Source of the DNA: Escherichia phage RCIP0359
Sequence record: PV778520.1
Length of the DNA stretch: 59,541 bases
Reading direction: 5' to 3' (one strand)
Under the pieces are notes generated by a model. The model searched no databases and had not been told where the DNA came from. It was given only the letters and a program-made list of their open reading frames with translations. Shown here piece by piece: positions 21,349-23,528 of the stretch; within the stretch, counting starts at the first letter, position 1, and each line of letters begins with the position of its first letter. Position numbers and translations under genes: made by a program.

Positions 21349-22056
21349 ATGTCTGACATGACTCTTTTACCTACTAATCTCGGTGGCGACGGTTTCGGCG
21401 GTGAAGCTGGTGCGGCTGGTATCGGTGGCGCGATCGGTGGCTTAATTGGTTCCTGGATCGGTAACGGTTGGGGTGGCAATGGTGGTTGGGGTGGTCGCGG
21501 TAACTTCGCTGGTCCGGTGGAAGTGCAAGCCTCTGTTGACACCAACGCAATTCTGCAAGCTATCAACAACGGTACTCTTCAGACCATTCAGGGGCAGAAC
21601 GGTACTAACCTGACTGTTGAGCGCTCCGCTGCTTCTACCTATAACGGCATCACTCAGCAGAACACTCAGAACATGCTGGCTTCCGTTCAGGGCTTTGCTG
21701 GTCTGAACACGCAAATTCAGGGCGGCACCAGCCAAGTGCTCGCGGCTCTGTGTAGCAACGAAGCGGCTAACATTACCCGTTCTTTCCAGGCCCAGTTAGC
21801 AGCCGAGAAGTGTTGCTGCGAAACCAATCTGAACATCGAGCGTCAAGCTGAAGCTACCCGTGCGCTGATCCGTGACCAGCACGCACAGGCGCAAGCAGTT
21901 CTGATCTGCGACCTGAAGTCCCAGTTGCAGGAAGCTCGCTTTGCAAACTCTCAGTTGGCACAGACGGCTGGTCTTACTTGTAAGATCAATCAGGTTGAGC
22001 AGTTAGTTAACTTTAAACTGCCAACTCCTCCAACTCCTCCGACTGGCTGCTGCTAA
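21349..22056 (+). CDS. Gly-rich / Cys-rich protein of unknown function (fibre-associated?)
   Basis: 235 aa from ATG 21349 (RBS GGAG); Gly-rich N-terminal third, CCC and C-terminal GCC; track start 21220 rejected. Confidence 0.5.
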   Translation: MSDMTLLPTNLGGDGFGGEAGAAGIGGAIGGLIGSWIGNGWGGNGGWGGRGNFAGPVEVQASVDTNAILQAINNGTLQTIQGQNGTNLTVERSAASTYNGITQQNTQNMLASVQGFAGLNTQIQGGTSQVLAALCSNEAANITRSFQAQLAAEKCCCETNLNIERQAEATRALIRDQHAQAQAVLICDLKSQLQEARFANSQLAQTAGLTCKINQVEQLVNFKLPTPPTPPTGCC

Positions 22057-22077
22057 TCGTTGAAGTGTGGTTAAACT

Positions 22078-22114
22078 AAAGCGCCTTTCGCTCCTCCGCT
22101 TGGGGCGCTTTTAA
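22078..22114 (+). terminator. putative intrinsic terminator
   Basis: AAAGCGCC ... GGCGCTTTT with long loop. Confidence 0.45.
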
Positions 22115-22127
22115 CAGAGGTACTATC

Positions 22128-22496
22128 ATGAGCCACATTAAAATCGCAACGATGGGAATGCCACGGGTCAAATTGCCTAAGGTTGCTTTACCTCGCATTA
22201 GCGTAGGTGAGCACCACCATGAACATGAGAAAGAGGAATATAAACATGCTCACTCTTATGCTCGAGATCATGAACATATGGCAGCTATGTCAGATGTTCT
22301 TGACCGGATGGAAGAACCTCCGCATACGTGGGCGGCGTACCACGACAAGCCCGGCGGTATGATGTCCATTGTTGAAATGGAATACCGCGAATTAATGGAG
22401 TGTAAGAAAGAAGGCGACCGCGCAGGGATCATGAAAGAGTTGACTGATCTTGCCGCAGCTTGTACTTGCGCTCTTCAAAAAATGAAAGATATGTAA
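22128..22496 (+). CDS. His-rich hypothetical protein
   Basis: 122 aa; HHHEHEKEEYKHAHSYARDHEH cluster; RBS AGAGG. Confidence 0.5.
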   Translation: MSHIKIATMGMPRVKLPKVALPRISVGEHHHEHEKEEYKHAHSYARDHEHMAAMSDVLDRMEEPPHTWAAYHDKPGGMMSIVEMEYRELMECKKEGDRAGIMKELTDLAAACTCALQKMKDM

Positions 22497-22511
22497 GAAT
22501 AGGAAGCCGAC

Positions 22512-23042
22512 ATGCAAAACGTAAACGCAGGAATGGGCGTAACCCAGTTCAACGGGATGAAACCGAAAAACTCCATCAACATGGGCGGTGTTGATTGGAC
22601 GTTACGTCGGGACGCTACCGATTCAACTACCATGTTCCCACACCAGAAGGTTAGCTGGCTTAATGCTGGCTGTGAACCTATGGGTGATGGAAGGGTTCAT
22701 TACTGTTGGATTATGGGAGTGATACCGCCTACGCCGGGCACTATCGAACGACCCGTGAATGTGATGTATGTCGGCTTCCACCAGTTTAAAATCACGATCG
22801 CTCCAAACTCCATTAGTCAGTCTGATCTTGATCGTATGCATGTTTACGTCAGCGATGGTACAGACTTTGCAGGGGATTTTATTAATAAGTTTCTTGGCGT
22901 GCAACCGGAGCAACCTGTAGAAGCCCGCGAACATATTAGTCCGTGGCCACCAATGATTGATCAGGAAGTTTTGCAGCCAAAGACCGCTCAAACGGTCCCT
23001 CAGAAACCGGAGCAGAAGGTAAAACCAAATAACGAAGAATGA
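22512..23042 (+). CDS. hypothetical protein
   Basis: 176 aa; RBS AGGAAG. Confidence 0.5.
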   Translation: MQNVNAGMGVTQFNGMKPKNSINMGGVDWTLRRDATDSTTMFPHQKVSWLNAGCEPMGDGRVHYCWIMGVIPPTPGTIERPVNVMYVGFHQFKITIAPNSISQSDLDRMHVYVSDGTDFAGDFINKFLGVQPEQPVEAREHISPWPPMIDQEVLQPKTAQTVPQKPEQKVKPNNEE

Positions 23043-23121
23043 AGGTATTGATAAAGTTGTTGAAGGGCTTTCTATTCGCGCTCATGTTATAGCAGATGAA
23101 GGTCATGATCAACTTACTATT

Positions 23122-23313
23122 ATGAAATCCGCATTCAGCGATTTCAAGTCGCTTGGAAACTTAAGCGGGTTAATGACGGTGGTGTCGACCGGAAAATTAA
23201 CCCAGCAGCAAATCAGTCTAGCTCAGCGTATTGCTGTTAAAGTTATTGCGGTACTTGGGATGATTGAAGCCGAAAAGCCCAGTTCCAAGCAGGATAACGA
23301 AAGCGACCTTTAA
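23122..23313 (+). CDS. hypothetical small protein
   Basis: 63 aa ORF; weak RBS. Confidence 0.3.
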   Translation: MKSAFSDFKSLGNLSGLMTVVSTGKLTQQQISLAQRIAVKVIAVLGMIEAEKPSSKQDNESDL

Positions 23314-23324
23314 GGAGGTCTACT

Positions 23325-23528
23325 ATGTGTGGTAATACTAACCGTTGCTGTTTAGGCAGTCCTGCAACACAAGCAGGTATACTTCAGGGGCAATTGGCTC
23401 AAGCAGCGTGTAATTGCAAGACGTTTCAACCAGTAGCGCCAACTCCGGTGTTTGTGAATGCTTTTGCACCGCCTGTTTTCAATACTTTTGGCGTATACCC
23501 ATACGGTGCTTTCTTTCGTATATTCTAA
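23325..23528 (+). CDS. small Cys-rich protein
   Basis: 67 aa; strong RBS AAGGAGG; shares QLAQ.A...CK motif with C-terminus of the 21349-22056 protein. Confidence 0.5.
   Translation: MCGNTNRCCLGSPATQAGILQGQLAQAACNCKTFQPVAPTPVFVNAFAPPVFNTFGVYPYGAFFRIF

Follow-up and report, generated by a model that had tools for sequence, protein, structure and literature searches.

A conserved four-gene cassette of Escherichia phage RCIP0359 and its proposed role in holding back lysis

Lysis suppression in phage CSP1 and the matching genes of RCIP0359

Like LydB of phage P1 and RI of phage T4, CSP1_021 of the Cronobacter/Escherichia phage CSP1 is a small accessory protein, for which one transmembrane (TM) segment is predicted; it is reported to bind a holin and to hold up its triggering, and energy poisons lift the block. 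The suppression of lysis in which it takes part was described by Kim & Ryu (2025, J Microbiol 63:e2501013; PMC13577005), and the genes concerned recur in the DNA considered here, a stretch of 59,541 nucleotides from Escherichia phage RCIP0359 (record PV778520.1), referred to below as the window. The genes encoding proteins of 235, 122, 176 and 94 amino acids (aa) in the window are a conserved syntenic four-gene cassette, of which the first two correspond to characterised genes of CSP1. The whole stretch is a Seuratvirus phage genome: between positions 21000 and 24000, it is 98.7% identical at the nucleotide level to CSP1, and its identity to other Seuratvirus phages (Queuovirinae), among them CAjan, slur01 and Greed, is 95-98%. 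The records 'Aeromonas phage SD04' and 'Cronobacter phage CSP1' are themselves nearly identical to E. coli Seuratviruses.

The CSP1 work provides the functional framework. CSP1 plaques are turbid, and a spontaneous clear-plaque mutant, CSP1C, carries a 4672-bp deletion that extends from the fibre gene into CSP1_023. In complementation, the fibre gene CSP1_020 together with CSP1_021 and CSP1_022 are all required to restore "lysis suppression", and CSP1_023, which encodes the 176-aa protein, is dispensable. The three genes also stop lysis by co-expressed holin and endolysin in uninfected BL21; the block is overridden by extra holin but not by extra endolysin, and it is released when the proton-motive force is collapsed with dinitrophenol. 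CSP1_021 and the holin give a two-hybrid signal. The mutant CSP1C has the same adsorption, latent period and burst size as the wild type, the fibre gene alone brought visible fibres back on its particles, and cells infected with CSP1 filament and lose viability without lysing (all PMC13577005).

The 235-aa protein of the window is identical to the product of the 708-bp gene CSP1_021 at 235 of 235 residues, and the 122-aa protein matches CSP1_022 at 120 of 122 (98%), with the same neighbours and the same lysis cassette in the window. Because these proteins are identical or nearly identical to characterised ones, their main function is already known from CSP1. The gene numbering of the GenBank record KY982929 differs from that of the paper, which is followed here. 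The 14-bp direct repeats (GTGCAACCGGAACA) that bracket the CSP1C deletion lie at 18221-18234 and 22899-22912 of the window with one mismatch each, so that a deletion of the CSP1C type should arise less readily in RCIP0359.

It appears probable, though well short of certain, that the 235- and 122-aa genes open a mobile accessory cassette, placed at the end of the Seuratvirus late operon, which holds back lysis. In the proposed mechanism, a glycine-zipper segment (residues 20-39) would hold the 235-aa protein in the inner membrane, and the protein would bind the three-TM class-I holin and prevent its triggering. Required co-factors would be the fibre product and the 122-aa protein, in which a variable His/acidic tract precedes a helical core of MazG-like type. 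Infected cells would then stay intact and release progeny slowly, which would give rise to turbid plaques. To the published function, the present analysis adds the synteny and spread of the cassette, its repeated loss, the MazG-like core of the 122-aa protein, the near-invariant CCC triplet of the 235-aa protein and the position of a 67-aa gene outside the cassette, all of which are new.

Despite the functional likeness, the 235-aa protein has no sequence or family match to P1 LydB or T4 RI/RIII in Pfam, PHROG or NCBIfam, and when compared with known antiholins (T4 RI, P1 LydB, lambda S107), it shows neither homology nor a holin-adjacent position, its gene lying at 21.3 kb and the holin gene at 58.0 kb. 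Unlike in the case of LydB, RI and RIII, some 36 kb separate it from the holin gene and the block needs two more genes; moreover, the CSP1 block operates at low multiplicity without superinfection and does not raise burst size (PMC13577005). The architectures also differ, with a predicted Gly-zipper anchor followed by a Q/N- and Cys-rich helical region in the 235-aa protein, as opposed to a signal-anchor-release domain combined with a globular periplasmic domain. In predicted architecture only, the protein recalls the lambda Rz-type i-spanins, which likewise combine an N-terminal membrane segment, a long helical region with conserved Cys and a terminal Pro-rich element. However, the window already encodes an Rz-like spanin, the 235-aa protein has no PHROG spanin match and no heptad periodicity, and the CSP1 phenotype is an inhibition of lysis upstream of spanin action (PMC13577005).

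Distribution and repeated loss of the cassette

The cassette is found in at least six phage groups beyond Seuratvirus, and the 235-122 gene order is held in seven groups. By BLASTP, Hanrivervirus aaroes, Eiauvirus eiAU and the Yersinia myophage YenM_25 carry all four genes arranged as in the window, and Sashavirus Sasha, Yersinia phage P400 and Aeromonas phage phiWae15 also show this gene order. Searches with tblastn retrieved comparable numbers of phage records for the 235-, 122-, 176- and 94-aa genes (221, 114, 140 and 161, respectively), from the same host genera. The surroundings of the cassette vary widely. In Queuovirinae and Hanrivervirus it stands behind the lateral fibre gene, and in Eiauvirus behind a tail protein gene, but it follows the terminase in Sashavirus, lies beside head genes in P400 and stands among early genes in YenM_25; no fibre gene is found near it in Sashavirus, P400, YenM_25 or phiWae15.

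Partial matches to the 235-aa gene also occur in about 100 Salmonella phage records. In T5-like Epseptimavirus, a frameshifted or truncated remnant of this gene lies right after an S74-type lateral fibre gene, as in Salmonella phage polluks (4752-5342), whose S74 fibre has a C-terminus closely resembling that of the window fibre. A set of records numbered MG0656xx ('Campylobacter phage A15b, A16a, A123 ...') contains Hanrivervirus-type cassettes encoding proteins about 72% identical to those of the window; these records look like coliphage sequences, and their host label is doubtful.

In many laboratory isolates, the cassette is damaged or partly missing, through independent events. In Seurat, a 3143-bp deletion (about 19726-22868 of the window) has brought codon ~118 of the 176-aa gene directly behind codon ~545 of the fibre gene, so that the 602-aa 'tail fiber protein' of this phage (1311-3119 of the Seurat sequence) is a chimera of the fibre N-terminus and the last ~60 residues of the 176-aa protein. 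Because of this chimera, the match of phrog_4128 ('tail fiber protein') to the C-terminus of the 176-aa protein is an annotation artefact. In SHIN8, the fibre N-terminus continues in frame into the final 65 residues of the 235-aa protein, and only the 3′ end of the 235-aa gene is left in GottfriedDienst and PLYYY01. Phage 9NA has the distal half of the cassette only, its relative Sasha having all four genes. In SeppeHuegi, the 235-aa gene is interrupted by a nonsense codon (Q83*) and the fibre gene is intact. KurtStettler encodes an in-frame fusion of an S74-domain protein with residues 20-235 of the 235-aa protein; a Rosetta-stone argument from this fusion is given little weight, because it is known from a single record and may be another laboratory deletion. 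Together with CSP1C, these losses fit a selection for clear plaques during isolation or laboratory propagation, and they lend independent support to a function in delaying lysis that is costly and that the phage can do without in the laboratory.

The proteins and their genomic setting

The composition of the 235-aa protein is as the initial annotation had described it. Its N-terminal third is rich in glycine, since residues 1-78 contain 23 Gly (29%) and the 157 residues after them only 9, and its C-terminus is rich in cysteine, with eight Cys within the last 100 residues (135, the CCC triplet at 155-157, 187, 211 and the terminal GCC at 234-235); the sequence PTPPTPPT occupies residues 225-232, directly before this terminal GCC. 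The family comprises 170 close clusters in a set of 5.8 billion proteins and, by exhaustive search, 117 distant representatives, mostly of 200-290 aa and matched end to end, and the protein matches phrog_9288 over positions 1-235 (E = 3.9e-130). Since the N-terminus MSDMTLLP is conserved in the family, the start codon at 21349 is confirmed. The hallmarks of the family, judged on alignment A1, the 121-sequence alignment of close homologs, and the distant representatives, are all present in the window protein: the MSDMxLxP N-terminus, an uncharged Gly-rich segment, CCC, LCD(L/A)K and a Pro/Thr tail. Along the family, a short acidic N-terminus is followed by the uncharged Gly-rich stretch, by a Q/N-rich region predicted to be helical, by the CCC triplet, by the LCD(L/A)K motif and by a tail that is either Pro/Thr-rich or Gly/Cys-rich.

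Each position of the CCC triplet is Cys in 120-121 of the 121 close homologs, and the triplet is kept in 58 of 65 distant full-length representatives; it is thus nearly invariant across a very divergent family. Alignment A1 shows no variation in the Pro/Thr tail. Cys211 and the terminal GCC are both present in 84 of the 121 sequences and both absent from 37, with no discordant case, and this co-occurrence suggests a pair, held as suggestive only because the Fisher p-value ignores phylogeny. Distant homologs have tails ending in GCGCGC or CHGCC. The obvious roles to suspect for the CCC triplet, for Cys211 with the terminal GCC and for the His tract of the 122-aa protein would be the formation of disulfides or joint binding of a metal.

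Insertion of the 235-aa protein into the membrane is a prediction from its sequence. The uncharged Gly-rich stretch is 30 residues long, with three GxxxG steps in register (G27/G31/G35/G39), and TMHMM predicts one TM segment in CSP1_021 (PMC13577005). The 19-residue Kyte-Doolittle maximum, reached at residues 20-39, is 1.27, and members of the family range from below 1 to 2.0. AlphaFold2 places a short helix at residues 24-33 with low confidence, and one long helix at residues 65-223, in a model with a mean pLDDT of 56 and a pTM of 0.24. No hydrophobicity periodicity of 3.5 or 7 residues rises above that of shuffled sequences, and given this lack of heptads and the poor model, a coiled coil is not called. 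In searches of Pfam, NCBIfam and PADLOC, and of PDB sequences both by single sequence and by profile, the 235-, 176-, 94- and 67-aa proteins gave nothing above threshold; weak SlyB and DUF6160 matches were due to Gly-rich composition alone.

The His-rich protein that the initial annotation placed between the 235- and 67-aa genes is indeed there: it is the 122-aa protein, with 11 His, of which 8 fall in residues 29-50. Its family has 44 clusters, and it matches phrog_9157 with E = 1.9e-60. The His/acidic tract (residues 29-50), which is modelled with low confidence, is always present in the family, but its length and sequence vary freely. Residues 57-121 are highly conserved, with E83, E85, E88, E104 and D107 invariant (alignment A3, 26 sequences), so that the helical core contains an acidic E-x-x-E motif (E85/E88) and an E-x-x-D motif (E104/D107). 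Motifs of the form E-x-x-E ... E-x-x-D bind metal in the MazG/PRA-PH superfamily and define it.

AlphaFold2 predicts three confident helices for the 122-aa protein (mean pLDDT 73.6, above 85 for residues 51-120), and the best Foldseek matches in the PDB are the PRA-PH and MazG proteins 1yvw, 2p06, 2yxh and 2a7w, although these matches are weak (E = 0.15-0.45, probability 0.89-0.96, TM-score 0.3-0.6). Outside its own family, the best match in BFVD is a mycobacteriophage MazG (TM-score 0.51/0.57). Profile scores stay below threshold, at 16.6 bits against a gathering cut-off of 21.3 for Pfam PRA-PH (PF01503; E = 0.011) and at 12.1 bits against a cut-off of 501 for NCBIfam NF008988. Residues 42-121 are predicted to form a helical bundle and resemble MazG and HisE (PRA-PH) in the acidic motifs and the best structural neighbours, but differ from them in having three predicted helices only, an additional His/acidic N-terminal tract and Foldseek E-values of at least 0.15. 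Membership of this core in the MazG/PRA-PH superfamily is likely but unproven. The genomes of the BASEL collection label homologs of the 122-aa protein "putative pyrophosphatase".

The 67-aa protein is Cys-rich, as had been noted (5 Cys, at positions 2, 8, 9, 29 and 31), and is identical to its CSP1 counterpart at 67 of 67 residues. Its open reading frame (ORF) is a real coding sequence, because third codon positions dominate its differences from phage SA126VB (9, 3 and 19 at codon positions one to three). Its family consists of four clusters within Seuratvirus only, and the ORF is kept in the deletion mutants CSP1C and Seurat; it is a separate, genus-restricted small gene outside the four-gene cassette. 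The motif that it was claimed to share with the 235-aa protein does not hold. The pattern QLAQ.A...CK fits the 235-aa protein only, the 67-aa protein requiring a spacer of 2 instead of 3; BLASTP aligns the two proteins with E = 0.13 on another register (QAQLAAEKCCCET vs QGQLAQAACNCKT); hhalign of the two family alignments gives a probability of 2.7%; and the genes show no nucleotide similarity (p = 0.23). In the positional ortholog of Hafnia phage yong3, which reads LLQSQIANTQARF, both Cys and the Lys are missing: it retains the N-terminal MCG..CCLGSPATQ and has QIANTQARF in place of the QLAQAACNCK of the window. The motif is therefore not conserved in homologs, which is the finding that the initial annotation had itself named as counting against it.

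That the 67-aa protein is a diverged paralog of the 235-aa protein, with QLAQ..A..CK / Pro-Thr as a common functional element, is thus hardly credible. Both are Cys-rich and encoded in one operon, and no more than 0.4% of shuffles attain their Smith-Waterman score of 43. This value is unremarkable because many protein pairs can be picked in a genome of roughly 90 genes, and besides the failures of pattern, alignment and DNA similarity given above, the 67-aa ORF is confined to Seuratvirus, whereas the 235-aa family spans many genera. The likeness is at chance level and coincidental.

The positions of these genes and of their neighbours are collected in Table 1. The 235-, 122- and 67-aa genes stand at the end of a rightward late operon, with the lateral tail-fibre gene upstream and converging leftward genes downstream, on to the DNA polymerase gene. 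The fibre begins with a phage_tail_N domain (Pfam PF08400, 1.5e-21) and ends with an S74 intramolecular-chaperone domain (PF13884, 8.4e-09) followed by a helical tail. A consensus scan of 21215-21348 revealed no promoter belonging to the cassette itself. The hairpin at 23535-23556 is probably a bidirectional terminator, and is so annotated in Seurat and SA126VB. All three TM segments of the holin contain small-xxx-small motifs.

Table 1. Positions in the window of the cassette, its sequence features, the neighbouring genes and the lysis genes
Feature	Position	Strand	Remarks
Lateral tail-fibre gene (CSP1_020 in PMC13577005)	18091..21177	+	tail-fibre PHROGs
Terminator-like GC hairpin with T run	21195..21214	+	between fibre gene and cassette
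GGAG ribosome-binding site	9 nt 5′ of ATG at 21349	+	sequence reading
Gene of 235-aa Gly-rich/Cys-rich protein (phrog_9288; CSP1_021)	21349..22056	+	proposed membrane-anchored antiholin
Gly-zipper segment AGAAGIGGAIGGLIGSWIGN	21406..21465	+	residues 20-39 of 235-aa protein; predicted single TM segment
CCC triplet	21811..21819	+	residues 155-157 of 235-aa protein
PTPPTPPTGCC	22021..22053	+	C-terminal tail of 235-aa protein
Gene of 122-aa His-rich protein (phrog_9157; CSP1_022)	22128..22496	+	
Gene of 176-aa protein (phrog_8329; CSP1_023)	22512..23042	+	third of cassette
94-aa reading frame (phrog_7239)	23029..23313	+	fourth of cassette
67-aa Cys-rich ORF (phrog_25697)	23325..23528	+	outside conserved cassette
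GC-rich hairpin	23535..23556	.	between converging + and - strand genes
Gene of 93-aa protein (phrog_15669)	23558..23839	-	three TM segments; converging on cassette
Lysis cassette	57278..58823	+	PHROG matches
Endolysin	57278-57985	+	
Three-TM holin	57989-58366	+	reported binding partner of 235-aa protein
Rz-like spanin	58347-58823	+	

The 94-aa frame starts with ATA at 23029-23031, where CSP1, SeppeHuegi, KurtStettler, GottfriedDienst and SHIN8 have ATG; the next in-frame ATG, at 23122, would yield 63 aa and lack the first third of the family profile. Because ATA replaces the ATG start, the gene may be weakly expressed or truncated in RCIP0359. The 93-aa protein encoded on the opposite strand is 51-58% identical to its positional counterparts in yong3, 9NA, Sasha and eiAU (four genera), and it could belong with the cassette as an additional partner or merely mark the end of a conserved early operon. 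The annotators of Sasha assign to it an N-out/C-in topology, which is holin-like.

Some further features were recorded in the window. A 77-aa lipoprotein gene (phrog_12984, lipobox LTAC) lies at 17776-18009 on the minus strand, between the gene of a J-like tip protein and the fibre gene; it is annotated in Seurat as a moron with a bidirectional terminator, and its product may be a Cor- or Llp-like exclusion factor. A 92-aa Pro-rich ORF at 21291-21569 (minus strand), antisense to the Gly-rich region, is a mirror of GGN codons and was rejected as a gene. The G+C content peaks locally at 0.545 in 38001-39000, against about 0.44 elsewhere in the genome, and an Rfam scan of the whole window returned no matches.

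Alternative roles and significance of the cassette

Several points weigh against the proposal that a membrane-anchored, holin-binding 235-aa protein holds back lysis. All functional evidence comes from one paper (PMC13577005). Because gene subsets were complemented from different plasmids only, the fibre requirement reported there could be an expression or cis effect, and because several phages carry the cassette without an adjacent fibre gene, a universal fibre requirement is doubtful. The interaction of the 235-aa protein with the holin may be non-native, since both two-hybrid tags were N-terminal, a position that would distort an N-out holin and an N-out anchor. The Gly-rich segment is only marginally hydrophobic, its maximum falling short of the classical 1.6. 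As to topology, the charges in the family (an acidic N-flank and one Arg after the segment) favour N-out/C-in, whereas the KurtStettler fusion and the N-terminally tagged two-hybrid constructs imply N-in. Finally, the 176- and 94-aa genes are equally conserved yet unneeded, so lysis suppression may not be the whole role of the cassette.

The initial annotation had offered virion proteins, accessory proteins of fibre assembly or metal-binding factors as possible roles. Its observations are partly confirmed, in composition but not in the shared motif, and its interpretation is partly supported: these are real genes, and the fibre, 235-aa and 122-aa genes are jointly needed in CSP1, but the phenotype to which they contribute is a delay of holin-triggered lysis. 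A place in the virion, or a chaperone role in folding or attaching the lateral fibre, is very improbable for the Gly/Cys-rich, His-rich and 67-aa proteins. The position of the genes directly 3′ of the fibre gene in Seuratvirus, Nonagvirus, Hanrivervirus and Eiauvirus would agree with such a role, as would the frameshifted remnant accompanying the S74 fibre gene in polluks, the frequent deletion of the 235-aa gene along with the fibre gene, the label 'lateral tail fiber chaperone' carried by database homologs and the in-frame KurtStettler fusion, but that fusion is a singleton and the 'chaperone' label stems from its S74 part. A role in fibre assembly is contradicted by CSP1C, on which fibres return with the fibre gene alone and which adsorbs and bursts as the wild type does (PMC13577005). 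The fibre has an S74 chaperone domain of its own, and its gene is intact in SeppeHuegi, where the 235-aa gene has the nonsense codon. In Sasha, P400, YenM_25 and phiWae15, the neighbours of the cassette are terminase, head or early genes, and searches of Pfam, PHROG and NCBIfam gave no match to a fibre-assembly family. No virion proteomics of a cassette-bearing phage was found in the literature, including the phage 9g paper. A moron-like membrane module, acting in superinfection exclusion or envelope protection and delaying lysis indirectly through a perturbation of the membrane or of the proton-motive force, is an improbable alternative, although the cassette is a self-contained unit between terminator-like hairpins, turns up at five or more distinct sites in phage genomes, is not needed in the laboratory and has four conserved genes of which two are needed for the published phenotype. 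The conserved three-TM protein that converges on it in four genera would suit such a module, as would the filamentation and loss of viability of infected cells (PMC13577005). However, the block is beaten by overexpression of holin and not of endolysin, it holds in uninfected BL21 with holin and endolysin only, the 235-aa protein gives a two-hybrid signal with the holin, and no PADLOC or superinfection-exclusion family is matched.

A further possibility, unlikely but worth retaining, is that the Cys-rich domain of the 235-aa protein and the His tract of the 122-aa protein bind metal (Zn, Ni or Fe-S) or form regulatory disulfides, and that this state sets the timing of lysis in place of a plain stoichiometric binding of the holin; this would refine the mechanism more than it excludes suppression of lysis through the holin. 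Metal binding by Cys-rich and His-rich proteins is plausible, judging by their residues. The near-invariance of CCC over a very divergent family, the joint gain and loss of Cys211 and the terminal GCC (84/0/0/37), the GCGCGC or CHGCC ends of distant homologs, the persistence of His/acidic composition despite free variation and the invariant E85/E88 and E104/D107 of the MazG-like core are all consistent with it. On the other hand, none of the searches matched a metal-binding family or fold, a single split between clades may account for the joint occurrence of Cys211 and GCC, and His-rich tracts are common in disordered regions. The cysteines may face the oxidising periplasm or the cytoplasm, depending on a topology that would decide their state, with disulfides expected in the former and thiols or bound metal in the latter. 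More speculative, and rather unlikely, is a broader proposal in which the four-gene cassette, perhaps with the convergent three-TM gene, would be a widespread mobile lysis-timing device of enterobacterial siphophages with a role beyond blocking the holin, its 235- and 122-aa proteins sensing a cellular or assembly signal and coupling it to holin triggering. Candidate signals would be the metal or redox state, the nucleotide pool or an S74 chaperone fragment freed on fibre maturation, and such sensing would explain why the fibre gene, oddly, is required and why an S74 domain is found, in one natural case, fused to the membrane protein.

The timing of lysis sets phage fitness and the clearing of cultures, and a dispensable module of Seuratvirus-like phages that confers turbid plaques and slow lysis is relevant to phage therapy and to isolation practice. 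With its CCC triplet, His tract, MazG-like core and fibre dependence, the mechanism would be unlike that of textbook antiholins. The losses described above suggest that routine propagation strips this module repeatedly, including from the type phage Seurat and the classical phage 9NA, and reference genomes may for this reason under-represent it.

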